Notes: a model not told the origin generated them from the letters alone. Shown: positions 1,435 through 18,451, counted from the first letter of the stretch. The stretch: 64,000 nt of DNA from Gemmatimonadota bacterium (GCA_040389905.1 JAZJZK010000005.1:192001-256000), one strand, 5' to 3'. Numbers and translations are program-made.

Positions 1435-3861
1435 CTAGAACTTGGATTCGAGGTACAGATCCACTCGAAATTGCTTTCGTGGGTAGATCCCACGCGCGAC
1501 ATCGAATCGGAACAATCCATCCATGAACGAAACGCCAACGCCCGCGCCGCTCATCGGCCGGCCCACGTTGCCCCAGTCCGCGCGGTCACCAACCCAGCCG
1601 ATGTCTGTAAAGACCGTTGGTCGCAAGCCAACATAGTTCGAACCCAACTCGGTGCGCGTCAACCAGAAGGCGTTACCGCTCTGCGTGACGTCGGGGCTCT
1701 GGCCGCGCACAGTCTGTGAGCCACCGAGGTACCAGTTCCGCTGCGCCGGCAGTCCGCCGACCGAAGTTCCGCCCGACAACGTCAACGAGCCTGCGAGCCA
1801 CTCCCCCAGGCCGTGCGACGCGGTGAAGTCCATTGCCGCGCGGCCGTAGACCGAGTCCCCACGCGCTACCTCAGCCCTTGCGTCAGTGATGAGGCGCATA
1901 CCACGGGGGTCGAGGCCGGACTCGCGATACGCGCGGCCTTCAAGGCCGACATAGGTTGCGCGCGTCGCGACCAGGTTCGCTGGGAAGTCAGAGCCATTCA
2001 TCGAGAAGCTCGCGTGGGGCGTTGCGGAACGTTGGCGCTCCGCGAACGTGCGCCACTCCAGCCGAGTGCCACCACCAAACGAGGACTGCCGGCCGCCGCC
2101 GAACGACAGACCCGACGCGCGGTAGTAAAAGCCTTCGTCGCGCCCGAACATCAACGCGGAGAATGAGCTGCCGAAACTGAGTGGATGCCCCCAATCGCTC
2201 GCCGAGACGAGCCGGTTATACAACGACAGCGTGACAGCATCGGTCATATTCGTGCGAGTCACGGACAACTCGATGTTAGGCTCCCGATCCGCCAGTCCGA
2301 TACGTCCGATTGCCAATCCACTGTAGCCGCCACCCGCCTGCTGTTCGATTGACGCGCCGAGGGAAAGGCCCTCGACCCTGTTATATCGTGTCATGGACAG
2401 GCCGTACTGCACGGTTGGCGGAGGCATGAGTGCGAGACGGAGCTGGAGCGGGCCCTGTGCCGACAGCGACAGTGCTTCCTGCTTGAGCAGTTCAAGCTCC
2501 TTGTCGCCAAACAATTCCTCGCCATCGTCATAGATAGACGCTGGTAGGTCCGGAGAGTGCTCGAGTGCCGCGAGATTGCAGGGTGTGCGCACCGCGATCT
2601 TCAAATCTCCGCCGTAGCGGTTTGTCAGCCCGACACGCGTATCCGATGTATCGCACTGTGACGAACGACGAGGCACTGTCTTCAGTCCAAGCCGAATCGA
2701 GTCAACCGATGCTCGGGTGCGCGCACGCGTCGCGAGTCGAACGGAGTCGCGCCACTGCTGTTGCTGTTCGACGCTCAACGAATCAGGCATCCGAACGCGA
2801 ACAACGGGCGCCAGAACTCCAACTGCTTCGGGAATGGCCGGCAGAGGGTCCTTACCGTTCACGCTCGCGTACTTGAAGCTCTCCTCCATCTTGAACGGCA
2901 CGTGCATGAAGCTCACCTGTGCCGTACCCTCGGCCAGCCGGAGCCGGGGGAGCCAGAAGCGACCCTCGTGCAGTCCGTACTCCACGGCGATCGTGGAGAC
3001 GTCCGCCTTCATCGGCGTGATCATCGGCTTGACCCACGTGGGCACGTCCTTCATCGCGGTCGTATCCTCGATCTGCGCAACGGCCCAGATGTCCATCGTT
3101 ACCGAGAGGCGATATGCAGCCCGCACCAACTGTCCGGACTTCGTATCGAACCACAGGGAGCCGACCGCGAGATTCCACTTGCTCACGCGTGGACGAACCT
3201 TGAGCTCACGCAGCAGGATCGTGGCGCCGTTTGGGAGAGTGAAGCGGACCGAGTCGCCCGTCTCATACGTGTAGTACGCCTCGGCGCCATCCGCGATCGG
3301 ATTGACCAACTCCTTGTCGTTCACCTGCGACCGTGCCATTCCGCTGCCAACCCAGAGCGGTTCGTAGCCTGGGAAGTAGGGGATCGACGCGTTCATGTCC
3401 GGATCATTCGTTTCCTGCCGGATCTCCTCGCGTGCTTCGTCCGGTGCGGCGGGAATTGTCGTCCGCTTTCCCTTGATGTCCATCCAGACGCCGACGCCTT
3501 GCTGCCATCGAACGCGTGCCGCACTCTCGTGACGGAACAACAGCCGATCGCGGCCCATCTTCAGGAACGACATGCCGGCGGAGACGCGCGAGTACGACAT
3601 GGCGTCGTACGAAGTAAGGGCGGAGTCCATCGACATGCGTGCGACGCGCGCCTGAAGCAACGTCGTCCTTGCCAGCGGGTCCTTGAACGCCGACCGCTGA
3701 TCTTCCGCGGTCACGGGCTGCCGCGCGCCTCGTCGGGAACTCCGTCCCGCGCGCCCCGAATCTATTCCCATGCTGTCGCGTACGACTGGGGTGCGGGGCG
3801 ACGACGGACCGATCTGGATTTGCGCGTGCAGGGCGAGCGCGGCACCAAGGACGAGAAGCAT
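1435..3861 (-). CDS. Outer-membrane protein with a C-terminal beta-barrel (Omp85/DUF5686-like)
   Basis: Signal peptide, RYNRVEGL, Omp85-like LGGSQTVRG loop, amphipathic strands and terminal Phe (LYLESKF). Confidence 0.65.
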   Translation of the reverse strand: MLLVLGAALALHAQIQIGPSSPRTPVVRDSMGIDSGRAGRSSRRGARQPVTAEDQRSAFKDPLARTTLLQARVARMSMDSALTSYDAMSYSRVSAGMSFLKMGRDRLLFRHESAARVRWQQGVGVWMDIKGKRTTIPAAPDEAREEIRQETNDPDMNASIPYFPGYEPLWVGSGMARSQVNDKELVNPIADGAEAYYTYETGDSVRFTLPNGATILLRELKVRPRVSKWNLAVGSLWFDTKSGQLVRAAYRLSVTMDIWAVAQIEDTTAMKDVPTWVKPMITPMKADVSTIAVEYGLHEGRFWLPRLRLAEGTAQVSFMHVPFKMEESFKYASVNGKDPLPAIPEAVGVLAPVVRVRMPDSLSVEQQQQWRDSVRLATRARTRASVDSIRLGLKTVPRRSSQCDTSDTRVGLTNRYGGDLKIAVRTPCNLAALEHSPDLPASIYDDGEELFGDKELELLKQEALSLSAQGPLQLRLALMPPPTVQYGLSMTRYNRVEGLSLGASIEQQAGGGYSGLAIGRIGLADREPNIELSVTRTNMTDAVTLSLYNRLVSASDWGHPLSFGSSFSALMFGRDEGFYYRASGLSFGGGRQSSFGGGTRLEWRTFAERQRSATPHASFSMNGSDFPANLVATRATYVGLEGRAYRESGLDPRGMRLITDARAEVARGDSVYGRAAMDFTASHGLGEWLAGSLTLSGGTSVGGLPAQRNWYLGGSQTVRGQSPDVTQSGNAFWLTRTELGSNYVGLRPTVFTDIGWVGDRADWGNVGRPMSGAGVGVSFMDGLFRFDVARGIYPRKQFRVDLYLESKF

Positions 3862-3977
3862 GGTGTGGACTCAAGGTGGGAATGGAGGCAACACTTTCCG
3901 TACGCACTCCGCACGGGAAGGTTTCCGTGCTATCGTACAGGTCCCTCCGCGCCGCGACGCTCACGTTTTGGAGTCGC

Positions 3978-5219
3978 ATGCTGTTCGTTGACGTCCTCGT
4001 TTCGGCCATCTCGGAAATTCTCGCCAACAAGCTGCGGAGCTTCTTCACGCTCCTCGGCATCATCGTCTCCGTCGCGTTTCTCGTAGCGGTGGTCGCGGTG
4101 ATCCAGGGGATGAATTCCTACGTCACGAACAATCTCGCAAACTCACTGATCGGCACGAACGCATTTCAGGTTCGACGCGTGCCGATTCAGCTCGGCTTCT
4201 TCGACGATGAGGCGTTCAAGAAGATTGCGAAGCGGCCGGTGATCGAACGTGCCGACTTCGAGGCCGTGCGCGCTGCACTCCCCGACGCCGACGCCATGGC
4301 GATCACGTCGGGATTCCCCAATCCACTCTCTGATATTCAGTGGGGCAACCGCGAAGTTGGTGACGTCACGATTCGCGGCGTCACCCCGCCGTACCAGACG
4401 GTGCAGGACTATCGCATCGTTCGCGGCCGGCCGCTGATCGACGTGGATGAGGATCAACGTCGGGCCGTTGCGGTGATCGGCTCGGAGGTGGCGGAGAAGC
4501 TCTTCGAGGCGGCGGACCCGATTGGCCAGACGGTCCGGCTGGCGAAGGAGCGCTTCGAAGTGGTCGGCGTGCTCGCATCCAAAGGGCGAATGCTCGGCCA
4601 GTCGTTCGATGCGATCGCGCTGATTCCATTGTCGCGCTACGAGATGGTGTACGGTCACCGCGCGTCGACCTCCATTTCGATCAAGATGAAGGAGGCAGCG
4701 GATGTCGCGCCCGCGATGGCCCGCGCCGAGGAGGCAATGCGTCTCAAGCGACACCTGCGTCCTGGTCAGGAGAACAACTTCTCGATCGAGACGGCGGCAG
4801 CGCTCGTCGCATTCTGGCAGAATCTCACGGCGATACTGTTCAGCGTGATCCCCGCCGTGGTCGGGATTGGAGTCGTCGTCGGTGGCATCGTCATCATGAA
4901 CATCATGCTGATGGCCGTCAGCGAACGGACGCGGGAGATCGGCATTCGGAAAGCGGTCGGGGCGCGAGCACGCGACATCGAGCGGCAATTTCTCGCCGAG
5001 GCGATCGCCCTGTCGGCGATGGGCGGTATCATCGGGGTCATCAGCGGGTGGGCGTTTGCGGAGCTGGTCGCCACGGTGTCCCCGCTCCCGGCGCGAATCA
5101 CCTGGTGGTCGGTCGTGCTCGCCGTGGTGCTTGGTGCCGGCGTTGGAGTCTTGTTTGGCGTCTATCCCTCGCGCCGCGCCGCGCGGCTCGACCCGATCGA
5201 GGCGTTGCGCGCAGAATGA
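3978..5219 (+). CDS. MacB/FtsX-type ABC permease
   Basis: NKLRSFFTLLGIIV; GGIVIMNIMLMAVSERTREIGIRKAVGA; AARLDPIEALRAE. Confidence 0.92.
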   Translation: MLFVDVLVSAISEILANKLRSFFTLLGIIVSVAFLVAVVAVIQGMNSYVTNNLANSLIGTNAFQVRRVPIQLGFFDDEAFKKIAKRPVIERADFEAVRAALPDADAMAITSGFPNPLSDIQWGNREVGDVTIRGVTPPYQTVQDYRIVRGRPLIDVDEDQRRAVAVIGSEVAEKLFEAADPIGQTVRLAKERFEVVGVLASKGRMLGQSFDAIALIPLSRYEMVYGHRASTSISIKMKEAADVAPAMARAEEAMRLKRHLRPGQENNFSIETAAALVAFWQNLTAILFSVIPAVVGIGVVVGGIVIMNIMLMAVSERTREIGIRKAVGARARDIERQFLAEAIALSAMGGIIGVISGWAFAELVATVSPLPARITWWSVVLAVVLGAGVGVLFGVYPSRRAARLDPIEALRAE

Positions 5220-6469
5220 CGTACCCGCTCTCCGTCGACCAACTCCGGGAGAACCTCGGCATTGCCGTGGACGCGTTGCGCGTCAGCAAGCTGCGTTCGG
5301 GACTCACGATACTCGGCGTCGTGATCGGCGTTGCCACCGTGATGACGATGGCGACGATCGTCAAGGGCATACGCGACCAGATCCTCACGACGATCAACGT
5401 GGCGGGGCCGACGACCTTCTATGTGATGAAGATTTTTTCCACGACGCCGATCAACCCGGATCAGTTGCCGAAGTACGTGCGCGTCAGGCCGGATCTCGTG
5501 CCCGCGGAGGCTGCACGCATCGGCCAGCTTCCGCAGATCGCGTATGCAAGTATCTGGTCACAGTTCCAGGCGCGCGTGAACTACAACGGCTCACGCACAC
5601 GCGACGTCATCGTCTATGGGGCGGACGATCGCTACCAGGAGATCATGGGCGGTGAGCTGGTCGAGGGGCGCTGGTTCACGAAGAACGAGCTTCGAAGTGG
5701 TGCGCCGGTCGTGGTGCTTCAGGAGCGTCATGCGCGACAGATATTCGGCCGCGAGTACCCGTTGGGGAAGGCGGTGATGATCGGTGGGCGGCCGGTGGAA
5801 GTCGTGGGGCTCTATCAGGAACCGGAGAACATCTTCGCGCCGCCGGGACAAGGAGTCGGTGCGATCATGCCATTCGAATACGTGATTCATGCGTACAACA
5901 TCGACAAGACGAACGCGATGTTCATCGTCGTCAAGCCGAGAGGAGGCGTGACGGTTGCGGATGCCGAGGATGCCGCGACGATTGCGCTGAGAGAAATGCG
6001 AGGGCTCCGGCCGAGCGACAAGAACAACTTCGACCTGCTCAGCCAGGATCAGATTCTCAATGTCTTCACGTCGATCACGGACATCTTCTTTCTCGTGATG
6101 CTGGTGCTCGCATCTGTCGCGCTGATGGTTGGAGGCATCGGCGTGATGGCGATCATGATGGTGTCCGTGACGGCCAGAACGCGGGAGATCGGCATTCGGA
6201 AGGCGTTGGGCGCGACACAACGCGACATCATGATTCAGTTTCTGATCGAGGCCGCGACACTGACGGGAATCGGTGGGCTCATCGGCATTCTCGTGGGCCT
6301 CACCGCGGGCCGCGGGGTAACGATGCTGATCAACGTGCAGGCGGATGCGCCACTGCTTCAGACGGCAATTGCGGTCGCGGTTTCCGTCGGCATCGGCCTG
6401 GTTTTCGGTGTTGTGCCGGCGAGACGTGCGGCGAAGCTCGATCCCATCGAGGCATTGCGGTACGAGTAG
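5216..6469 (+). CDS. MacB/FtsX-type ABC permease
   Basis: KLRSGLTILGVVIGV; SVTARTREIGIRKALGA; AAKLDPIEALRYE; ATGA overlap with the previous gene. Confidence 0.92.
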   Translation: MTYPLSVDQLRENLGIAVDALRVSKLRSGLTILGVVIGVATVMTMATIVKGIRDQILTTINVAGPTTFYVMKIFSTTPINPDQLPKYVRVRPDLVPAEAARIGQLPQIAYASIWSQFQARVNYNGSRTRDVIVYGADDRYQEIMGGELVEGRWFTKNELRSGAPVVVLQERHARQIFGREYPLGKAVMIGGRPVEVVGLYQEPENIFAPPGQGVGAIMPFEYVIHAYNIDKTNAMFIVVKPRGGVTVADAEDAATIALREMRGLRPSDKNNFDLLSQDQILNVFTSITDIFFLVMLVLASVALMVGGIGVMAIMMVSVTARTREIGIRKALGATQRDIMIQFLIEAATLTGIGGLIGILVGLTAGRGVTMLINVQADAPLLQTAIAVAVSVGIGLVFGVVPARRAAKLDPIEALRYE

Positions 6470-6552: not shown

Positions 6553-6993
6553 ATGCCCACACGCTATCGCGTGAGCAGTCCCAACATTGTCGCCGACGTC
6601 ATCGATGGCGAAGCGGTGATCATCCACCTTGAAAAGGGAACTTACTACAGCCTCCTGGCGCCCGGAGCAGAAGTGTGGGAAGCCGTCACGCGTGGAGCAA
6701 CGGACGTTGAAACCCAGCGTGAGATGAAGGCTCGTTACGCTGGTGAATCGAGCGACATCGAACATGCGGTATCCGAACTAATCGCCGAGATGGAGCGCGA
6801 AGGTCTGCTACTCGGTGAGTCGGTGACTGGCGAGGGCGCCGTCGTGGTACACACGGACGCGGTGAGCGTCGACCGGCCGCCATTTCAGCGTCCGGAACTC
6901 AAGCGGTACTCGGATATGGAGGCGATCCTGATGATGGATCCCATACACGAAGTGGATGAAGCGGGGTGGCCTGCTGCCAAGCGCCCCGAGTGA
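6553..6993 (+). CDS. PqqD-family (RiPP recognition element) protein with a C-terminal peptide extension
   Basis: IDGEAVIIHLEKGTYYSL...GAEVWEAV...LIAEMEREGLL RRE pattern, then FQRPELKRYSDMEAILMMDPIHEVDEAGWP. Confidence 0.85.
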   Translation: MPTRYRVSSPNIVADVIDGEAVIIHLEKGTYYSLLAPGAEVWEAVTRGATDVETQREMKARYAGESSDIEHAVSELIAEMEREGLLLGESVTGEGAVVVHTDAVSVDRPPFQRPELKRYSDMEAILMMDPIHEVDEAGWPAAKRPE

Positions 6994-9465: not shown

Positions 9466-10355
9466 GTCTCGCGAGGCTCCTCCTGCGCGCCATCTTTCTG
9501 GATGGTCGCGAGTCGATGGATGCGTGGCACGCGTGGCAGGCGACAACGCAGCTGGATGACGTCGATCCGGAGTGCTACGCACTCCTTCCGATGCTCTACC
9601 GAAAGCTCGAGCGCGTAGATCCCGACCATCCCGATCTGGGGCGACTGAAGGGAGTGCGGAGGAGAATCTGGCTTGAGAATCAGTTAGTACTTCCTCAAGC
9701 CGCTGCGGCATTACGACGGCTTCACTCGGAGGGAATCGAATCTCTGCTGCTGGGCGAATTGGCCATGGGCACGGCGTACTATCCGGAGAACGGATTGCGC
9801 CAGATTCGCCAGACCGACATCGCTGTCCCACGAGGTGACGCGCGTCGGACGAAAGCGCTCCTTTCGCCAATGGCGTCGACCCTGCGGGTGCACACCAGCA
9901 TCATGTTTTTGGGATGTCCGCGAGAGGTTGAACATCTATGGTGGTCGGAGGCCGCTCACGTTCACATCATGGATGTGCCGTCGCGAGTTCTGGCGCCGGC
10001 CGACCAATTGGTTCACACGCTCGTATCGGCAGGGTCATTGTGGTCGAGCGATCCGGCAACATGGTGGATGGCCGATGCGCTTATCCTCCTCGCAGAGTCG
10101 AATGTCGATATCAACCGCGTCGTGGACATCGCGCGGCGATTGAAGGTGACGGCGTTCCTGCTCGACGCGTTGGAGAGGCTTCGTGCGGCGCTCGGGTGCC
10201 CTGTCGCCTTGAACCTCATCGATGCGCTGCGTACGGCACCGACGTCTCTCGCTGATCGTCTGGAACTCGGATACAGCATCAATTCGCGATGGCAGCGGCC
10301 CCTTCTCTCGTGGTTCATCGCTCCCCCTCGTCGCTTCTACCGCAGCTACACATGA
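9462..10355 (+). CDS. Nucleotidyltransferase-family protein (NTP_transf_5-like), degenerate motifs
   Basis: LLPMLYRKL...RLKG...W.EN, L...GIESLLLG...YYPENGLR...DIAV, DQLVH, WMADA pattern and cluster context. Confidence 0.65.
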   Translation: MSLARLLLRAIFLDGRESMDAWHAWQATTQLDDVDPECYALLPMLYRKLERVDPDHPDLGRLKGVRRRIWLENQLVLPQAAAALRRLHSEGIESLLLGELAMGTAYYPENGLRQIRQTDIAVPRGDARRTKALLSPMASTLRVHTSIMFLGCPREVEHLWWSEAAHVHIMDVPSRVLAPADQLVHTLVSAGSLWSSDPATWWMADALILLAESNVDINRVVDIARRLKVTAFLLDALERLRAALGCPVALNLIDALRTAPTSLADRLELGYSINSRWQRPLLSWFIAPPRRFYRSYT

Positions 10356-11056
10356 CGCTCGTTTCCGTTATTCTGCCCGTCTACAACACCGAAGCGTTCA
10401 TCACTGAAGCGATCGACAGTGTGCTCACGCAGGGTCCGGAACCGCTCGAGTTGATCATCGTCGACGACGGCTCTACCGACGCGACGCCGGACATCGTTGC
10501 CGGATACGGCAGTACGGCGATCAAGTACGCACGACAGGAAAATCGGGGAGCGGCCGCGGCGATGAATGCCGCGGTTCGCCTCATTTCCGGTGAGTGGGTT
10601 GCCTTTCAAAATGCCGACGACGTTTGGCTCCCAGGCAGGCTGCCGTTACAGCGCGCGCTCCTGGATGCGCATCCGGAGGCAGACATCATCATCGGGCACA
10701 TGAAGCGGATGTGGCGCCCCGCCGGCGAGGTGGAGTGGAAGTGCACGGAGAAGGAATTTGCAATGAGCCTCCAGAGTTGCCTCGTTCGTCGCACGGTACT
10801 CGACCGGATCGGATCGTTTGACGAGACGCTTCGCTGCTGCTTCGACTGGGACTGGCTCTTCAGGGCACGCGAGACCGGTGTGTCGTTCCTCACCCATCCA
10901 GAAATCACGCACTACTATCGTCGGCACGAGACGAACATCAGCGGCGAGGCAACAGCCAACCCCGAGGTGGCGATCATCATCAAGCGCTCGCTGGAACGCC
11001 GGCGCGCGAAGGGCATGCAGGGATCGCTCGCGAGTCTCAATCCAAACACCGCGTAG
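10352..11056 (+). CDS. Glycosyltransferase family 2
   Basis: VSVILPVYN, IVDDGSTD, FQNADD (DxD variant), FDWDW. Confidence 0.9.
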   Translation: MTLVSVILPVYNTEAFITEAIDSVLTQGPEPLELIIVDDGSTDATPDIVAGYGSTAIKYARQENRGAAAAMNAAVRLISGEWVAFQNADDVWLPGRLPLQRALLDAHPEADIIIGHMKRMWRPAGEVEWKCTEKEFAMSLQSCLVRRTVLDRIGSFDETLRCCFDWDWLFRARETGVSFLTHPEITHYYRRHETNISGEATANPEVAIIIKRSLERRRAKGMQGSLASLNPNTA

Positions 11057-11135: not shown

Positions 11136-12053
11136 ATGCCGCTCATCAGCGCGCGCAACCTCACAAAGTCGTATCCTGGCGTTCAGGCACTCGACGGCCT
11201 CACCGTCGATGTAGAGCCTGGCATCATTGGATTCGTCGGCGCCAACGGCGCCGGCAAGAGCACCTTCCTTCGCATTCTGCTCGGCTTGCTCGAACCAACG
11301 AGTGGGAGTGTCTCGGTGCTCGGCCACGACGTCCAGGCTGGCGCGATGGAGCTGCGCGGCCTCGTCGGCTACATGCCGGAAAACGATTGCCTTCCTCTCG
11401 ACCTGAGTGGCACGGACTTCGTCGCGCACATGGCGCAAATCTCCGGCCTTCCGTTTACGGCGGCGCGCGAGCGGGCGGCGGAAATGTTGCGGCACGTGGG
11501 ACTGCACGAGGAGCGATACCGCATGATCGGGAGCTACTCGACCGGCATGAAGCAGCGGATCAAGCTCGCCCAGGCGCTCGCCCACGATCCGCGTCTCTTG
11601 TTGCTGGATGAACCAACGAATGGCCTCGATCCCGAAGGGCGGGACGAAATGCTGGCGCTCGTCGAACGCACTGGTCGAGAGTTCGGCATCGCAGTCGTCG
11701 TCACGTCGCATCTCCTCGGCGAAATCGAACGGGTCTGCGACTCGTTGCTCGCGATCGACGGAGGCAAGCTTCAGTATGCGGGCCCGGTGGCGGCGTTCAC
11801 AGAGCGCAGTCGTCACCTGCTCGTCGAGGTAGACGATGACGTCCCTGAGTTTGCCGCGCAGTTGCGTGCGCGTGGGCTGACGGTCGAGGGAGCAGGTACC
11901 CAGTGGCGCGTTGGTCTCGCGGACGACTCCGTATACGACGTGGTGCGAGACGTGGCGGCGGAGCTCGCCGTTCCCTTGTCGCGACTCGAGGTCGCACGGC
12001 ACAAGCTCGAAGAGCTGTTCCGTCAACCAATTGCCGGAGCCGCCAATGGCTGA
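11136..12053 (+). CDS. ABC transporter ATP-binding protein
   Basis: GANGAGKS, YSTGMKQR, LLLLDEPTNGLDP, SH. Confidence 0.95.
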   Translation: MPLISARNLTKSYPGVQALDGLTVDVEPGIIGFVGANGAGKSTFLRILLGLLEPTSGSVSVLGHDVQAGAMELRGLVGYMPENDCLPLDLSGTDFVAHMAQISGLPFTAARERAAEMLRHVGLHEERYRMIGSYSTGMKQRIKLAQALAHDPRLLLLDEPTNGLDPEGRDEMLALVERTGREFGIAVVVTSHLLGEIERVCDSLLAIDGGKLQYAGPVAAFTERSRHLLVEVDDDVPEFAAQLRARGLTVEGAGTQWRVGLADDSVYDVVRDVAAELAVPLSRLEVARHKLEELFRQPIAGAANG

Positions 12054-12930
12054 CGCACGCACCGCGGGCGCGATCTATGATCTGGGATACCAGAGGTACG
12101 ACGGCGCACGCCTCGGACGGGGATATGCGTTTCGCACCCTTCTCGCCTTCTCGTTCCAAACTGCGTTCGGACTCGGCCGTGGCGAAAAGGCGAAGTTTCT
12201 TCCCATCATCTGCGGCGCGCTCGTCTACATGCCGGCGTTGATCCAGATCGGCGTCGCATCGCTTGCGGGATCGACCCAGTTTCTCAATTACGCGGACCAT
12301 CTGGAGTTCACCGCATTTCTCCTCGCGTTGTTTGCGGCAGGGCAGGCGCCGGAACTGATCGTAGCCGACCGGCAACAGGGCGTTCTTTCACTGTACCTTT
12401 CACGTCCACTGCGGCCGCTGGATTACGCATTCGCCAAGCTCATTGCGCTCTCCGGCGCGATGCTCGTGCTTACGCTTGGACCGCAGCTTGTACTCTTCCT
12501 GGGAAAGATCTTCATCAGCAACAAGCCATGGCCGGCATTCGTCGCCGAGTGGCCCAAGCTCTTTCCCATCCTCGGCGGGTCGTTGCTGGTATCCATCTTC
12601 TTCGCCGCGGTGGGACTCGCGCTGTCGTCCTTCGCAAATCGCAAAGGATACGCGACGGCGTCCGTAATCTCGTTTTTCCTGCTGTCAGGCGCGCTGTCGG
12701 AAATGGTGCAGAAAATTGGCTTCGGAGGCGTGGAGCGATATGCCGTCCTCGCGAGCCCGGCACTCCTGATTTCCGGCTTTGCCAAATGGCTGTTCGAAAT
12801 CGAAGCGCGGAGGCGCTCTGCCGTGGGCCGAGCGGCGCTGCCTGGACATCTCTATCTGGAAGTACTCACTGTCGTGACGATCATTGCCGTCGTGATCCTG
12901 ATTCGACGCTATCAGCGAGGTGAGGAATGA
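12046..12930 (+). CDS. ABC-2 type permease
   Basis: IYDLGYQRYDG, about 6 TM segments, LYLSRPL; coupled to the ATPase gene. Confidence 0.85.
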   Translation: MADARTAGAIYDLGYQRYDGARLGRGYAFRTLLAFSFQTAFGLGRGEKAKFLPIICGALVYMPALIQIGVASLAGSTQFLNYADHLEFTAFLLALFAAGQAPELIVADRQQGVLSLYLSRPLRPLDYAFAKLIALSGAMLVLTLGPQLVLFLGKIFISNKPWPAFVAEWPKLFPILGGSLLVSIFFAAVGLALSSFANRKGYATASVISFFLLSGALSEMVQKIGFGGVERYAVLASPALLISGFAKWLFEIEARRRSAVGRAALPGHLYLEVLTVVTIIAVVILIRRYQRGEE

Positions 12931-13892
12931 CCGCGGCGCAACGAGCCGAGCCGCTCGCGCCAGCCTCTCCGGCGGCAGCGAGCCATAGCGTCGAGCTGCG
13001 GAACGTGTCGCGCTGGTACGGCAACGTCGTGGCGGTGAACGACGTGTCGTGTTCGCTCGGCGCCGGGATCACGGGTCTTCTCGGGCCGAATGGCGCTGGC
13101 AAGACGACGATCCTGCACATGATGGCGGGGCTCCTACGGCCGTCCGCGGGCTCGGTGACCGTCGATGGCGACGCCCCCGCTGGCCGACCCGACGTGTATC
13201 GAACCATCGCGCTGATCCCCGAGCGCGAGTCCGTGCAACCGTTTCTCACCGGCTACGAATTCGTGCTGATGAGCGCAAAGCTGCAGGGACTCCGTGATCC
13301 TGTCTCGGCGGCGAAGCGGTGCATCACGCTCGTGGATCTCGAGAGCGCTCAGGGGCGTAAGATTTCGACGTATTCCAAAGGCATGCGGCAACGCATCAAG
13401 ATCGCCGGTGCGCTCGTGCACGATCCAGGGGTCATTCTCCTCGACGAACCGTTCAACGGGATGGATCCACGGCAACGGATCCAGATGATCGACATGCTGC
13501 GCGGACTCGCGGCTGCGGGATGCGTGATCGTAATCAGCTCGCACATTCTGGAGGAGCTCAATGACCTCGCTTCGAACGTGCTGGTCATGGTTGCCGGCCG
13601 ACTCGCTGCCTCAGGCGATTTCCGCGAGATCCGGCGCCTGATGACGGATCGGCCGCACACCTTCACCACCAAGTCCTCGAACGACCGCGCGCTCGGTGCG
13701 TCGCTCCTGACCGATGCATCGGTGTTTGGCGTCGAACTGACGCCAGATCACATTGTCGTCCGAACGGCAGACCGCGGCGCAATGACGCGGAATCTGGCCG
13801 GCATTTCGCGCGCGGCAGGCATCCGGCTCCTCGAGATTCGTCCGACGGACGAGTCGCTCGAAAGCGTCTTCTCGTACCTGGTGGACCGATGA
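12927..13892 (+). CDS. ABC transporter ATP-binding protein
   Basis: GPNGAGKT, YSKGMRQR, ILLDEPFNGMDP, SSH. Confidence 0.95.
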   Translation: MTAAQRAEPLAPASPAAASHSVELRNVSRWYGNVVAVNDVSCSLGAGITGLLGPNGAGKTTILHMMAGLLRPSAGSVTVDGDAPAGRPDVYRTIALIPERESVQPFLTGYEFVLMSAKLQGLRDPVSAAKRCITLVDLESAQGRKISTYSKGMRQRIKIAGALVHDPGVILLDEPFNGMDPRQRIQMIDMLRGLAAAGCVIVISSHILEELNDLASNVLVMVAGRLAASGDFREIRRLMTDRPHTFTTKSSNDRALGASLLTDASVFGVELTPDHIVVRTADRGAMTRNLAGISRAAGIRLLEIRPTDESLESVFSYLVDR

Positions 13893-14641
13893 ACGCCCCG
13901 CTCGAACGGACGGTGCTCTGGCTGACGTGGAGGCAACTCTTCGCTCGGAAGCGCATCTACCTCGCGATCGCCTTCTCGCTGCTTCCGGTGATCTTCACGC
14001 TGGTTTTCCGCTTCATGGCCGAGGATCGCGAAGGGGCGCGGATGGACTTCTTCAGCGGTTTGAACCGCAACCTCATCCTGGGAACGCTCATCCCGCTCGC
14101 GGCCGCCGTATTCGGAACCACCGCCTTTGGCGGCGAAGTGGATGACGGCACGATCGTCTATCTGCTCGTGAAGCCGATTGCGCGGTGGCGGCTCGTGTTG
14201 TCGAAGTACGTGGTCGCGGTCCTCTCGACGATCGCGGTCATGATTCCCGCGATGGTGCTCCCGTGGTGGATCATGGAAGGCACAGAAGTGACGTACGACA
14301 TGCTGGTGGGATTCATCGCCGGTGGTGCGCTCGGCGTGTCGATCTATTGTGCGATCTTCCTGACCCTTGGACTGGCATCGAAGCGATCGCTGATCCTCTC
14401 CCTGCTGTACGTCATCGGTTTCGAGGCGGTACTTTCGCGGAGTCTCGTTGGCGTCAAGTCGCTGAGCGTGCGCGAGTTCTCCGTTGCGGCGTCGCTCGCC
14501 GCAAGCAACGAATCGCTCACGCTCAAGGAATACGTCGTTCCCATGTCCACCGTGTGGACGATGGGGACGATCTTCCTCGTCGGAGCGATCAGCCTTTGCC
14601 TTTGGAAGCTGTCGCGGTACGAGGTGGCGGAACGGGTTTAG
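13889..14641 (+). CDS. ABC-2 type permease
   Basis: GEVDDGTIVYLLVKPIAR, about 6 TM segments. Confidence 0.85.
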   Translation: MNAPLERTVLWLTWRQLFARKRIYLAIAFSLLPVIFTLVFRFMAEDREGARMDFFSGLNRNLILGTLIPLAAAVFGTTAFGGEVDDGTIVYLLVKPIARWRLVLSKYVVAVLSTIAVMIPAMVLPWWIMEGTEVTYDMLVGFIAGGALGVSIYCAIFLTLGLASKRSLILSLLYVIGFEAVLSRSLVGVKSLSVREFSVAASLAASNESLTLKEYVVPMSTVWTMGTIFLVGAISLCLWKLSRYEVAERV

Positions 14642-15818
14642 GCATCGGTGGCGGTGCCTTGTCCTGGACCTTGAAGCGTACCAGGCCGGGCGTCTTTTTA
14701 TCGACGCCCCAGAGGTGGGAACGATTGACCGTGAGTGGAGTGAAGTTGGCGGGAATCTCCAGGCGCGCGATCGGCTCCCCGCGTTCGTCCAGCACCAACG
14801 CCTCTTGCGTCTGCGCTGAGTCACTGACAGGTCGCAGGAAGATCCACGTACTGTAGTCGTTCCCGATCAGTGCATTGGTCAGGAACGTCTTGAAGAACGG
14901 CGTCCGCTTTGCCAACTCGGCGTGGACCTGTTCCGCAGTCTGCTCGCCGTAGCCATTTCGTGACTTGATCGCGCTGTCGCGAGCCATCTGGGTGATCCGG
15001 ACCACGGGCATCGGATAGCGACGCGCGTAGATCGTGTCGCCATTCTCGTTGAGTGCGACGACGCGAACATTGCCGCTGTCCGTCGCGCTGACGGCCGGTT
15101 CGACAAAGGTGATCCGCTTCCCGTCGGGCGTGACGGACCAGAATCGCTGCGCATGGTAGGGAACGATCATCGTGTGCGGCGTCGCGCGCCCATTTCTGAG
15201 CGTGAGTCGTCCGCGGTCGTCGTCATCGAACTGGGCAACGTCTTTCCGGACCGCGCCACCGTTATCGACCCGGAGCAGGTGTGAGACCTTGCGGTTGAAG
15301 CCGGGCGTGTCGAACAGTGTTCGTGGGCTGAGCGGGATGACGAGCTTCGTGCTGTCCGGGTACACGGCGATGGTTTGCATGGACCCGAACAGCGGATACT
15401 TGCGGCGGTCGGCCCACTTCGGATGTACCCAGGTCGGATCGGGGATGTTGTTGATGATCTTCGCATCACGGTCGAGAATGACAACCTGCTTGAACCAGCC
15501 GTCGCTGACCCAGAGCTTGTCGCCGACCCATCCAATGCGCTCGATCCAACCGATTTCGCTTCGGTCGTTGTATTCCGCCTTGAGCTCCCACGCGAGCGGC
15601 TTGCCTGCGGAATCGTAGGCTTTCAGCGTGTTGCTATTCTTCTTCCCGACGATCGTGCGCCCATCGGGCCCAAGCAGGATCGATCCGACGGGCCAGAGCC
15701 ACTTCTTGTTGAGAATCGTGCTCTCGATGCGCAGGTCTTCCGCGAGGTAGCGCTTCGGGACGGTTTGCTGGGCGCTCGCGCTGAGGCTGACGGCGAGGAG
15801 AAGGATCAGAAATCGCAT
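14589..15818 (-). CDS. Secreted beta-propeller protein (6-bladed-like)
   Basis: Signal peptide MRFLILLLAVSLSASA-Q; repeated blade motifs (LGPDG, YDSAG, LWVSD, VTPDG, LDERG). Confidence 0.6.
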   Translation of the reverse strand: MRFLILLLAVSLSASAQQTVPKRYLAEDLRIESTILNKKWLWPVGSILLGPDGRTIVGKKNSNTLKAYDSAGKPLAWELKAEYNDRSEIGWIERIGWVGDKLWVSDGWFKQVVILDRDAKIINNIPDPTWVHPKWADRRKYPLFGSMQTIAVYPDSTKLVIPLSPRTLFDTPGFNRKVSHLLRVDNGGAVRKDVAQFDDDDRGRLTLRNGRATPHTMIVPYHAQRFWSVTPDGKRITFVEPAVSATDSGNVRVVALNENGDTIYARRYPMPVVRITQMARDSAIKSRNGYGEQTAEQVHAELAKRTPFFKTFLTNALIGNDYSTWIFLRPVSDSAQTQEALVLDERGEPIARLEIPANFTPLTVNRSHLWGVDKKTPGLVRFKVQDKAPPPMPKPVPPPRTATASKGKG

Positions 15819-15880
15819 ATCGTATGGTGGCCGGTAAGCGAGGCAGGCGCAACGATGATCTTTGGCTGAAGCAGCCCGCA

Positions 15881-18451
15881 TCATCGCTCTCGCGTCCAGA
15901 GCAGCAGCGTGCCGCATCCCGCGCCCGTCGCATTGTACTCCGGCGGTGCGACACCTCCGGAGGGATAGAACTCGAGGCCGGACAGTTCGCGAACCTGCAG
16001 CCGGTTTACATCCGGCGGATCCATACTTCCTTCGACGACAGAGTAGTACAGAACACCATCCATGTAGACCGTGACGTAACAGTCCGGCGACTCACACAGT
16101 CGGAGGACACGCCCCGAGCATTGCTTGCGGCTCGAGACCATGTACGTCTCGCCGTGCTTGCCAGGCACGAACATCATGCCAGACACGCGGCTCAAGATGA
16201 CGCTGCCGAGCACTTTCCCGTCTTCCCGCCTCAGCGCGCTGTCCGCCACGAAATAGCCGGCCACCTGACGCGCACGCCGTTCCTCGAAGCCGCGCAGCGC
16301 CGGAGACGCATACGCCGGCGACGCGACGGTGCGATTCGTATCGAGCAATGTGGCCTGCGAGGTGAGAACGAAATCATGCCTCGTCTCGACGCCGGCGCCG
16401 AGTGTGAGCGTGTCGCGCTCGAGGCGATATCCGATGCTGCGCGCCTGTGCGAACGCACGGCCCGGCGAGAGCCCATTCAGGCGAAACCGTCCGGACGAAT
16501 CCGTCGTGGCATGCCGGTCCAACGCGGGGAGCCAGATGTCGGCTCCGGCGATGGGCCCCCCATTATCACTCCGCGTGACTCGGCCAACGAGAACCGCCGC
16601 CTTGGGTGCGACGGCTCTCTCGAGCGCCCTCGCATCGACAGGCCAATCGACAACAATCACCGACGAGTCTGGTCGGACCAGCACGCGCATCTCCGCGTAG
16701 GATGCGTTCCCCTTGTTCAGCATCAGCAACACGACGTGGTGGTATGGAACTCCGCAAATCGAGAAGCGGCCTTGATCGTCGAGTTCGACTGTTTGTGTTT
16801 CCTGCTCGGAGATTGACTGCGGACGAAGCCACGCAGCCGTGACCTTTGCATCGCGGGGCAGTCGCACGCGCGTCGTGGTGTCCGTCACGCGTCCCATGAT
16901 GATTCCGGATGTTCCCACCGCGGGTGTCGACCCGCAGAGTGACCCCGCGATCTTGTCACGGGAGGGCATCATGATCGGCGGCTGCGTTGCATGACGCAAC
17001 GCCGTTGCCGTCGCCGGATCGCCGACTTCCAATTGTGCCAGCCGTTCCGCGCGCTGCCGCGCCTCGCTCATGGTGTTGCTCGATGTGGCGCCGAGCGTCG
17101 CAGCGACCGCTCCGCCGACCGTGGTCTCGAAGCTCCAGGATCGCGGGCCAATGAAGCGCGACAGCGAGGTGTCGATTACGGTTACTCGGTAGCGGCCGGG
17201 CACCCACGGTGAGAACTCGAAACGCCCGAGACTGTCGGTCGCGACGGTGTCCCCCGTTGCAGGGACGATGATGAGCGCGCCGACAATTGGCTTGCGCGTT
17301 CCCTCCTCCTGCACCGCGCCGAAAAGCGGTTGAAGCGAGAGCTGCCAGTGCACGTCGTCTGGCCAGGAGGCGCTCAGCACCACGCCTCCTGACGTTCCGA
17401 TCTGGCTATCAGGACTCTGTCGAAGCGTGACGCCTCGACTCGGCAGGCGCTGTCCACCATTTGTCGCGCCGCGCTGCACGATTCCCTGCATGACTGGGAT
17501 ATGCAGTTTCCATTCGTCGACGAACACCACACCGTTGGGCATCGTGCGGAAGTAGATGGCGCCGGCTGCGCCAGCGCGTTCCCACGCTGGATCGCCCCCC
17601 GTGTATCGATACTCGAGGGAGCGCAGCGACGGATTGGTTGACTCCATCCACAATGTGCCGCGCACGTCCATGAGCCGCTCTCGTCCGCGCGCGGGCTCGA
17701 AGCCGAGGCCTATGGCACCAGGGTGTGCGGCGTCGGGCGGTTGCACGCTGAAACAATGCGTCGCGGCGAAGCTGTCGTCGAGCAGGACATCGGCATCAGG
17801 GCCCTTGAACCAGCGACCATCCGCATTCTCCACGAGGTATCCCTGCTCGGCGAGCGCCGCCGGTGCGTCCGCGGCGACGAATGGGCGAGTGGTCCTTCCG
17901 GTTGCGAGGCGCGTGGCTTGCTGGAGGACGAGGCCACCGCGTGCCGTGACGCGCTCGTAGGTGAGATTCATTACCGTACTCGGATGCGATTCACGCGCGA
18001 CGATCGACGCGAGGAGTGCCGCGCGCGCTTGCTCCCACAACGAGAGCGCGTCCGTGCGATCGCGATCAGTCGAGCAGATGCGGTCGTCGTTGACAAAGCG
18101 CGTGGACAATAGCGAACCGACTTTCGTCAGCGCAAAGTCCAGCGTCGGACGTGCGGCGCGTGGTGTCGCCAAGGCGATGACGCGTGGCTGATACCCGATG
18201 CGCACGACACGTAGTTGTGTTGCCGACGCGGGCAGGTCAACCGAGTAGCGTCCGTCTTCGCCGGTGATGGCGCGCGACAACGCAATGCGATTCGCATCGA
18301 GCACGACGACAACGACGCCGGATAACGGCGCAACCGACCCCGTATCTCGCGCGATACCTGTGAGCCGCTGCGCGTTGGCGCTCGAAACGAACAAAAGGAG
18401 TGCCACGATAGTGGCACACCAGATCGTGATCCGGTCTCGGGTATCGGTCAT
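15881..18451 (-). CDS. Secreted protein with three carboxypeptidase-regulatory-like domains and a C-terminal TonB plug-like domain, no barrel
   Basis: Signal peptide; repeats of G.V......PI.GA.....TD..GRF...RIGY; C-terminal VYMDG...LEFYP...GCGTLLLWTR. Confidence 0.75.
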   Translation of the reverse strand: MTDTRDRITIWCATIVALLLFVSSANAQRLTGIARDTGSVAPLSGVVVVVLDANRIALSRAITGEDGRYSVDLPASATQLRVVRIGYQPRVIALATPRAARPTLDFALTKVGSLLSTRFVNDDRICSTDRDRTDALSLWEQARAALLASIVARESHPSTVMNLTYERVTARGGLVLQQATRLATGRTTRPFVAADAPAALAEQGYLVENADGRWFKGPDADVLLDDSFAATHCFSVQPPDAAHPGAIGLGFEPARGRERLMDVRGTLWMESTNPSLRSLEYRYTGGDPAWERAGAAGAIYFRTMPNGVVFVDEWKLHIPVMQGIVQRGATNGGQRLPSRGVTLRQSPDSQIGTSGGVVLSASWPDDVHWQLSLQPLFGAVQEEGTRKPIVGALIIVPATGDTVATDSLGRFEFSPWVPGRYRVTVIDTSLSRFIGPRSWSFETTVGGAVAATLGATSSNTMSEARQRAERLAQLEVGDPATATALRHATQPPIMMPSRDKIAGSLCGSTPAVGTSGIIMGRVTDTTTRVRLPRDAKVTAAWLRPQSISEQETQTVELDDQGRFSICGVPYHHVVLLMLNKGNASYAEMRVLVRPDSSVIVVDWPVDARALERAVAPKAAVLVGRVTRSDNGGPIAGADIWLPALDRHATTDSSGRFRLNGLSPGRAFAQARSIGYRLERDTLTLGAGVETRHDFVLTSQATLLDTNRTVASPAYASPALRGFEERRARQVAGYFVADSALRREDGKVLGSVILSRVSGMMFVPGKHGETYMVSSRKQCSGRVLRLCESPDCYVTVYMDGVLYYSVVEGSMDPPDVNRLQVRELSGLEFYPSGGVAPPEYNATGAGCGTLLLWTRER

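Follow-up and report, generated by a model that had tools for sequence, protein, structure and literature searches.

A lasso-type RRE protein with a fused leader-like tail, possibly the substrate or scaffold of a kinase, nucleotidyltransferase and glycosyltransferase cassette

The window analysed here, a stretch of 64,000 nucleotides from a Gemmatimonadota bacterium (GCA_040389905.1, JAZJZK010000005.1:192001-256000), carries the gene of a small protein, here called the RRE-tail protein, in which a RiPP (ribosomally synthesised and post-translationally modified peptide) recognition element (RRE) of the lasso-B1 type is joined through a linker to a conserved C-terminal tail. RREs are a common handle for the mining of ribosomal natural products, and the leader peptide that they bind is understood to be a separate one; the RRE-tail protein would take from its own tail the ligand that otherwise comes from a separate precursor peptide. 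We consider it quite probable that the FxxPxL stretch at the start of this tail is the cis ligand of its own RRE, while the wider reading, according to which such a self-leadered RRE is the substrate or scaffold of a phospho-glycosylation cassette resembling those of the LPP peptides and paeninodin, is put forward tentatively and stands a little short of an even chance.

The preliminary description of this DNA had noted an RRE fold, and the N-terminal domain was identified as an RRE of the lasso-B1 type by a profile search of the PDB and by Foldseek. Residues 20-86 match the Pfam family PF05402 (PqqD) with an E-value of 2.6e-9 and 37.7 bits as against a cut-off of 23.4, and this match together with the winged-helix fold places the protein in the PqqD/RRE domain family. 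A profile of the family returned TbiB1 (5V1U, E 8.3e-17), PbaB1 (9X90, 1.9e-12), TfuB1 (6JX3, 6.1e-8) and LppB (9X8Z, 5.7e-6) from the PDB, with PqqD proper at 0.075-0.19 in the same search, and Foldseek superposed the AlphaFold2 model of the RRE-tail protein on TbiB1 (5v1v_A) over 88 columns with a TM score of 0.89 normalised to the target and a root mean square deviation (rmsd) of 2.1 Å. The NCBIfam lasso-B1 models NF033536 and NF033530 scored below their cut-offs (40 bits vs 80 and 27 vs 70, respectively).

The tail, which reads FQRPELKRYS and then DMEAILMMDPIHEVDEAGWP, lies exactly where the preliminary description had placed it, the 30-residue string FQRPELKRYSDMEAILMMDPIHEVDEAGWP representing residues 111-140 (bases 6883-6972, the codon of F111 beginning at 6883), after which the open reading frame (ORF) closes with AAKRPE and a stop codon at 6991-6993. 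The gene most likely starts at ATG 6553 rather than at GTG 6481, as this is where the homologues start. A search of 5.8 billion proteins yielded 103 relatives of 119-190 aa, nearly all spanning at least 90% of the query, in which G29, Y31, D121, D129, P130, H132, E133, V134, G138, W139 and P140 are invariant; nine of these 11 columns fall in the tail, which is the best-conserved part of the family. The consensus of 172 unique family tails is (K/R)PxF-E-K-P-x-L-E-K-(Y/F)-T-D-M-(E/Q)-(D/E)-L-L-L-L-D-P-I-H-E-V-D, 2-3 residues, G-W-P and a further 3-26 residues. Since these 172 rows were chosen by the regular expression DP[IVL]HE[VI]D their core counts are partly circular, a circularity from which the invariance in the 103-homologue alignment is free. 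At the leader-like positions the 172 tails have F in 136, P in 143 and L in 133, and the strict form [FYW]xxPx[LIVFMA] is present in 73 of the 103 homologues, where shuffled sequences gave 9.3 on average and 18 at most. The match to the (Y/W/F)xxPxL motif bound by lasso-type RREs, to which the preliminary description had drawn attention, therefore recurs in the family well above shuffles, and a chance motif or an unconserved tail was ruled out by the nine invariant columns and the shuffle control.

The family is widespread. With one genome per species, a scan for [LMF]DPIHEVD turned up 428 stretches; tblastn confirmed 405 of these as relatives, and they span more than 12 phyla. Locus counts given below rest on 80 loci retained from these 405, contig ends having cut many, and the groups represented among the 80 are Gemmatimonadales, Acidobacteriota, Cyanobacteria, Chloroflexota, Actinomycetota, Bacteroidota, Ignavibacteriota, Nitrospirota, delta-proteobacteria, Verrucomicrobiota, Spirochaetia and Brocadiia. 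When the representatives of 50%-identity clusters, 1.84 billion in number, were searched exhaustively with a profile, 22,849 matched at E<=1e-3, a figure that takes in ordinary PqqD proteins; at E<=1e-10 there were 4,789 matches, and at E<=1e-30 there were 1,402. Look-alikes of the tail in the ESM Atlas were family members only, all else having a TM score below 0.4. No paper describing the RRE-tail family or the DPIHEVD motif was found in full-text searches of the literature; related clusters could be listed in the supplementary data of PMC13381572.

The AlphaFold2 model, built from the 103-row alignment, has a mean predicted local distance difference test (pLDDT) of 83.7, with values of 88-98 for residues 1-90, 58-66 for the linker, 95 for residues 111-120 and 53-63 for residues 121-146. 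DSSP assigned a strand to residues 116-119 of this model, directly following the leader-like motif, and as an isolated four-residue strand of high confidence must pair with the only sheet present, F111-x-x-P114-x-L116 is predicted to occupy the protein's own leader cleft, the next residues lengthening the RRE sheet. This agrees with the published geometry of leaders on RREs: in the sections of PMC13381572 drawn on here, the aromatic residue, proline and leucine of the [Y/W]xxPx[L/V] motif of lasso and LPP leaders fill two hydrophobic pockets, and in crystal structures the residues past the conserved leucine extend the RRE sheet. The proposal that FQRPEL completes the RRE sheet is thus supported by the strand and its confidence, and occupancy of the cleft we infer from pLDDT and secondary structure rather than from model coordinates or contacts.

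Tandem forms bear on the same question. Among the best 150 matches of the exhaustive profile search were 18 proteins with two or three RRE units per chain, the tandem forms lying among P0104-P0120, P0126, P0142, P0179, P0206 and P0220; a word-indexed search for longer fused relatives had found none, which in view of these 18 was a false negative. The strict motif follows the domain within 30 aa in 29 of their 44 RRE units (mean of 4.2 and maximum of 11 over 2000 shuffles) and within 62 aa in 30, several of the remaining units having a degenerate version such as PFSTLSL, and it lies approximately 15-24 residues downstream of the RRE. Exactly one DPIH..GWP module is present per tandem protein (18/18), on either the first or the last unit. 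A motif for most units and a single distal module indicate that the leader-like motif goes together with the individual RRE, which is the behaviour expected of a cis ligand, and judged from these tandem sequences the DPIH..GWP module is an element separate from it.

A motif tethered in this manner might also act as an autoinhibitory pseudo-leader, the cis FxxPxL closing the cleft until a precursor peptide encoded elsewhere displaces the tail. The motif is of the ligand class that lasso and LPP RREs bind in trans, according to the sections of PMC13381572 drawn on here, and the flexible 20-residue linker would permit an exchange; however, the high effective concentration of a tethered ligand would be expected to hinder displacement, the source genome contains a single PqqD match, namely the RRE-tail protein, and no adjacent lasso machinery, and no conserved small gene with a related motif occurs in the 80 loci or in the window. 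With the 80 loci and the window translated in all six frames, a tail profile found no second tail-like peptide at E<1e-3, and no free-standing tail peptide of 30-79 aa shared three 5-residue words with the query, a blank that is weak evidence because short genes are often not called. We regard displacement by a second peptide as quite improbable.

On the reading that the self-loaded RRE and its tail form a substrate or scaffold, its constant partners would be a kinase, two to four small family 2 glycosyltransferases (GT2s), a PF14907 nucleotidyltransferase and often an ATP-binding cassette (ABC) exporter. The first 38 nt of the kinase ORF (6956-6993) are shared with the end of the RRE-tail gene, an overlap also present in locus L001, and its true start may lie at a later codon than 6956, as orthologue alignments begin near aa 19. 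Pfam gave no match for this protein, the NCBIfam models HprK_rel_A and HprK_rel_B (TIGR04352 and TIGR04355) scored 28.0 and 28.7 bits against a cut-off of 200, and its sequence found spurious matches only in the PDB. The top 50 Foldseek matches of its AlphaFold2 model (pLDDT 94.5) were all phosphoenolpyruvate carboxykinase (PEPCK), and in a VIA search of 48,161 representative chains the whole kinase matched PEPCK 1ii2 (Z 16.7, rmsd 5.0, 302 aa) and residues 171-360 matched the HPr kinase/phosphorylase (HprK/P) structures 1ko7 (Z 13.4, rmsd 2.7, 131 aa), 1knx (13.1), 1jb1 (13.0) and 3tqf (12.2), the next unrelated row having a Z of 4.4. The P-loop catalytic fold and the Walker A motif, of which G192, G195, G197 and K198 are invariant in 62 orthologues, place the kinase in the HPr kinase/phosphorylase superfamily.

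A predicted complex of the kinase and the RRE-tail protein obtained an ipSAE of 0.69 (0.69-0.70 in three runs) as compared to 0.01 for the best control, the runs sharing at least 72% of contacts with a partner pLDDT of at least 74; this mark is attained by 116 of 157 solved complexes and by 2 of 215 mismatched pairs, counts that hold only roughly here because own alignments were used. The model supports binding of the kinase to the RRE-tail protein. In the predicted interface K193 of the P-loop and residues 302-334 of the kinase, which form two C-terminal helices and include the near-invariant P312, S313, T314 and Q317, face residues 10-33 of the RRE sheet and Y119, D121, M122, I125 and L126 of the tail, so that the C-terminal helices of the kinase would dock on the RRE sheet and on Y119-L126 and bring the tail segment beside the P-loop, in a manner that would be comparable to the way in which HprK/P takes HPr. 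Natural fusions provide a Rosetta-stone argument for the partnership, as five proteins of 781-849 aa consist of three RRE units with the kinase at the C terminus; P0106 and P0109 were inspected, and P0108, P0113 and P0120 align to nearly the whole of P0106. Separately, open frames of approximately 600 aa at L006:13451-15262 and L072:5291-7093 appear to join a kinase to a GT2 (tblastn, one frame).

The genes of the window operon are arranged head to tail and packed gene to gene (Table 1). When the window proteins were searched by tblastn over the 80 loci, the kinase was recovered adjacent to the RRE-tail gene in 72, a GT2 in 69 and PF14907 in 57. Clustering of neighbouring ORFs of at least 60 aa in 81 sources, namely the 80 loci and the window, gave the RRE-tail protein in 81, the kinase in 70, the small GT2s in 70 (175 genes) and PF14907 in 57 (77 genes), followed by a fused transmembrane and nucleotide-binding domain (TMD-NBD) ABC exporter in 21 and a short-chain dehydrogenase/reductase (SDR) in 15. 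No peptidase, cyclase or small conserved gene was found among these conserved families, and no lasso macrolactam cyclase or B2 peptidase was present in the window cluster genes or the conserved neighbours, the cyclase not having been searched genome-wide; the source genome has a single marginal PF13471 (transglutaminase-core) match, on another contig. Of the five genomes lacking an adjacent kinase, four have a strong orthologue at another site (E<=1e-96), with one to four small GT2 genes on its flanks.

Table 1. Coordinates of the RRE-tail gene, its parts and the downstream genes of the cassette in the window
Feature	Coordinates	Strand	Remarks
RRE-tail protein	6553..6993	+	146 aa from ATG 6553; listed ORF begins at GTG 6481
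PqqD/RRE domain, aa 20-86, lasso-B1-like winged helix	6610..6810	+	Pfam PF05402, PDB profile, Foldseek
Variable linker, aa 91-110	6823..6882	+	gapped and unconserved in homologue alignment; pLDDT 58-66
Leader-like motif FQRPELKRYS, aa 111-120 (F111-x-x-P114-x-L116, predicted strand 116-119)	6883..6912	+	pLDDT 95, logo, shuffle control; Y119 in predicted kinase interface
Invariant C-terminal module DMEAILMMDPIHEVDEAGWP, aa 121-140	6913..6972	+	9 invariant columns (103 sequences); pLDDT 60-63; D121, M122, I125, L126 in predicted kinase interface
HprK/PEPCK-fold P-loop kinase, 360 aa	6956..8038	+	Walker A GGKGGSGKS, aa 191-199
Small soluble GT2 glycosyltransferase, 249 aa	8040..8789	+	PF00535 E 7.6e-30
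Small GT2 glycosyltransferase, 227 aa	8782..9465	+	PF00535 E 4.7e-32; nearest solved structure a chondroitin synthase domain
PF14907 (NTP_transf_5) nucleotidyltransferase, 297 aa	9462..10355	+	PF14907 E 8.5e-18
Small GT2 glycosyltransferase, 234 aa from ATG 10352	10352..11056	+	PF00535 E 6.8e-31
Two ABC ATPase / ABC-2 permease pairs	11136..14641	+	~11136-12053, 12046-12930, 12927-13892, 13889-14641; first two starts guessed

A relative of the PF14907 protein found no match in the PDB by sequence, and the window copy, at 297 aa as against a median of approximately 390 aa in related loci and with its best Pfam stretch limited to positions 17-114 of the 249 in the model, may represent a truncated or divergent form. 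In loci L026, L046 and L044, which lack an adjacent kinase, an ABC exporter of approximately 620 aa directly follows the RRE-tail gene. Such arrangements of RRE-tail gene and exporter only, with the kinase at another place in the genome among 1-4 small GT2 genes (L026:9842-12306, L046:1091-3418 and L044:1547-3885, with overlapping genes in L044; L081-L084), belong to some Chloroflexota and to a delta-proteobacterial metagenome-assembled genome. Cassettes of Cyanobacteria and Ignavibacteriota carry accessory genes for an SDR, an SMP-30/gluconolactonase-like protein, an AT3-SGNH acyltransferase and a PMT_2-type transferase (L011:14887-16771, L015:13624-15807, L032:16296-17897), which hint at a glycan product. 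Directly upstream of the RRE-tail gene, at 3876-6469 and 1435-3861 of the window, are two MacB-type permeases (MacB_PCD and FtsX) and a minus-strand protein of 808 aa with a weak ShlB/FhaC-type C terminus; MacB/FtsX-type permeases occur in only 3 of the 80 related loci. Beyond the cassette, an 856-aa protein with three CarboxypepD_reg repeats is encoded at 15881-18451 (minus strand), adjoined by an unannotated 442-aa ORF that has no Pfam match (14589-15917, minus strand).

The composition of the cassette also bears on whether the tail could be the precursor of a cofactor or other small molecule, invariant residues of DPIHEVD..GWP, such as the histidine or tryptophan, becoming a small product on a protein scaffold. 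PqqA and MftA are peptides that are converted to small products, an invariant short C-terminal motif follows the pattern of cofactor precursors, and the GT2s weakly match the mycofactocin glycosyltransferase (MftF) model, below its cut-off; these matches are nevertheless limited to the generic GT2 N-terminal region, and the cassette has no conserved radical SAM enzyme, oxidase or peptidase, and of all the explanations weighed here this is the one to which we give the least credence.

In the mechanism that we propose, the kinase brought to the self-loaded RRE would phosphorylate the tail, the best candidate site being S120, as this position is T or S in 154 of the 172 tails (about 90%; T in 137, S in 17, D in 8, N in 5 and V in 1). 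Sugars would next be added to the phosphate by the nucleotidyltransferase and the GT2s, on the precedent of pseudomycoidin and the LPP peptides, and the enzymes acting later, or the exporter, may use the invariant DPIHEVD..GWP segment as a docking or acceptor element. The most complete version of this scheme, in which recognition domain, leader and substrate are combined in one self-presenting polypeptide of 146 aa that is phosphorylated on its tail, receives a phosphoglycan from PF14907 and the GT2s and uses DPIHEVD..GWP as a universal handle or acceptor, appears to us, on balance, somewhat doubtful.

Several points weigh against the tail being modified. Of the 172 tails, 14 have D, N or V at the candidate position, where tandem and kinase-fused forms often have R, K, H, G or D, and since loci without an adjacent kinase keep T or S at this position a comparison with the presence of the kinase is uninformative. 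The putative core DPIHEVD..GWP is invariant, unlike most RiPP cores, and with a pLDDT of approximately 60 it is placed confidently neither in the monomer model nor in the kinase complex. The neighbour families of the 81 sources include no conserved peptidase, and the extra tandem RRE units, having a leader-like motif and no distal module, look structural and self-capped rather than substrate-like. The single-sequence ESM Atlas model of the RRE-tail protein is poor (pTM, the predicted TM score, 0.59; pLDDT 0.64), the score of the kinase complex is a model confidence and not a measurement, and phosphorylation and glycosylation of the tail we infer by analysis and not by experiment. It is because the site is not universal, the core is invariant, a conserved peptidase is absent and the extra tandem units look structural that the full mechanism is held no more firmly than stated at the outset. 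Of the RRE-precursor fusion proposed in the preliminary description, the fusion of a leader-like motif to the RRE stands, and the tandem units fit a cis ligand; its status as a precursor is called into question by the missing peptidase and by the invariance of the segment, which is unlike most cores.

The main rival takes the RRE-tail protein to be an adaptor only, the self-capped RRE and its tail assembling the cassette enzymes (kinase, GT2s and nucleotidyltransferase), or activating them, on an acceptor other than a peptide, such as a glycan, a lipid carrier or a small molecule, the tail itself being left unmodified. The hydroxyl that is not universal and the missing peptidase suit this explanation, and a 20-aa stretch with nine residues invariant over more than 12 phyla is what a protein-protein interface typically looks like. 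As for the GT2s, they are generic GT-A enzymes of the sugar-extending kind, for which a chondroitin synthase domain and polysaccharide glycosyltransferases are the nearest solved structures, and the SDR, gluconolactonase-like, AT3-SGNH and PMT_2 genes that loci often carry are typical of glycan pathways. As LppB is reported to be insoluble without its leader (PMC13381572), a leader in cis could simply stabilise the fold. Every characterised set of RRE, HprK-like kinase and PF14907 protein described in the sections of PMC13381572 and PMC8498205 drawn on here, however, acts on a peptide, the complex model sets the tail segment at the P-loop of the kinase, and some genomes have the gene of a peptide-exporter-type ABC exporter directly after the RRE-tail gene, the two overlapping in L044. 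We judge a purely adaptor role to be unlikely, though deserving of serious attention.

A family of self-leadered RREs would explain many orphan clusters of PqqD, kinase and nucleotidyltransferase genes that lack a precursor gene. If the proposed mechanism is correct, this would be the first pathway of the ribosomal-peptide type with recognition domain, leader and substrate in a single polypeptide and would define a class of protein or peptide phosphoglycosylation that is new and spans phyla, and it would extend the phosphorylated-peptide chemistry of the LPP type far beyond the Bacillota. The invariant module of 20 residues stands out as a strong candidate for a short recognition motif that would be new. 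The cassette represents a simple system, with its two to seven genes and a substrate of protein size that would be easily tracked by intact-mass spectrometry, and the family includes many culturable cyanobacteria, culturable carriers being for instance Calothrix sp. PCC 7507 and Scytonema hofmanni UTEX 2349.

The closest parallel in gene content is that of the LPP clusters (LppA/K/B/S/D/N; Popov et al., Nat Commun 2026, PMC13381572), which in the sections of that paper drawn on here comprise a discrete RRE of the lasso type, the HprK-like kinase LppK, an NTP transferase that is uncharacterised, an MsbA-like pump and a peptidase of the SpI type, and are often embedded in glycosyltransferase-rich loci. 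Their precursors have the leader YxxPxVLxHQxIxFETxxS and a core whose Ser3 is polyphosphorylated, LppB is insoluble without its leader, and the leader's C-terminal portion, which makes no RRE contacts, probably meets the modifying enzymes (PMC13381572). The RRE-tail cassette shares with them the discrete RRE, the HprK-like kinase, the NTP transferase and a leader motif of the [Y/W]xxPx[L/V] class, and the LppB structure 9x8z is matched by the family profile. It differs in that there is no separate precursor gene, the leader-like motif being fused to the RRE and usually starting with Phe; in the absence of a peptidase domain from the window cluster genes and conserved neighbours, no dedicated SpI profile search having been made; in the tail consensus FExPxLEK(Y/F)TDM..LLLLDPIHEVD..GWP, the invariant part of which contrasts with the highly variable C termini of LPP precursors; and in having two to four small GT2s in its core. 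The exporter is MsbA-like in LPP clusters, whereas the window has ABC-2 type pairs and the fused TMD-NBD exporter is that of the 21 sources noted above. LPPs and paeninodins are restricted to the Bacillota according to the authors (PMC13381572), and the RRE-tail family occurs in more than 12 phyla.

Paeninodin (PadeK) and pseudomycoidin (PsmK/PsmN) likewise combine an HPr-kinase homologue and a nucleotidyltransferase as a tailoring pair with a B1-type RRE; for pseudomycoidin the kinase is described as phosphorylating the C-terminal Ser, the nucleotidyltransferase then adding one or two hexoses to the phosphate (PMC8498205, in the sections drawn on here). Their acceptor is the C-terminal Ser of a free precursor, whereas the RRE-tail cassette has no conserved cyclase, B2 peptidase or precursor gene. 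The borosins resemble the RRE-tail protein in that a ribosomal peptide substrate is carried in cis by a pathway protein, the core being fused to its own methyltransferase (PMC8429565, in the part drawn on here); the carrier is an enzyme in that instance and a recognition domain in the RRE-tail protein, and there is no homology between the two.

The kinase shares with the HPr kinases/phosphorylases the fold of the catalytic domain (Z 12.2-13.4 over approximately 131 residues), the Walker A motif and a predicted contact through C-terminal helices and P-loop. It is set apart by a PEPCK-like N-terminal domain and overall shape (Z 16.7), by the lack of a Pfam HprK match and by NCBIfam scores far below cut-off, and its partner is an RRE and not HPr. 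The RRE-tail protein itself is closest in sequence and fold to the B1 proteins of the lasso B1-leader complexes (TbiB1 5V1V/5V1U, TfuB1 6JX3 and PbaB1 9X90), with which it has in common the ligand class and a predicted strand after the Leu; their ligand is a separate peptide, whereas that of the RRE-tail protein is predicted to be tethered by a linker of approximately 20 residues, with one such ligand per unit in the tandem forms.

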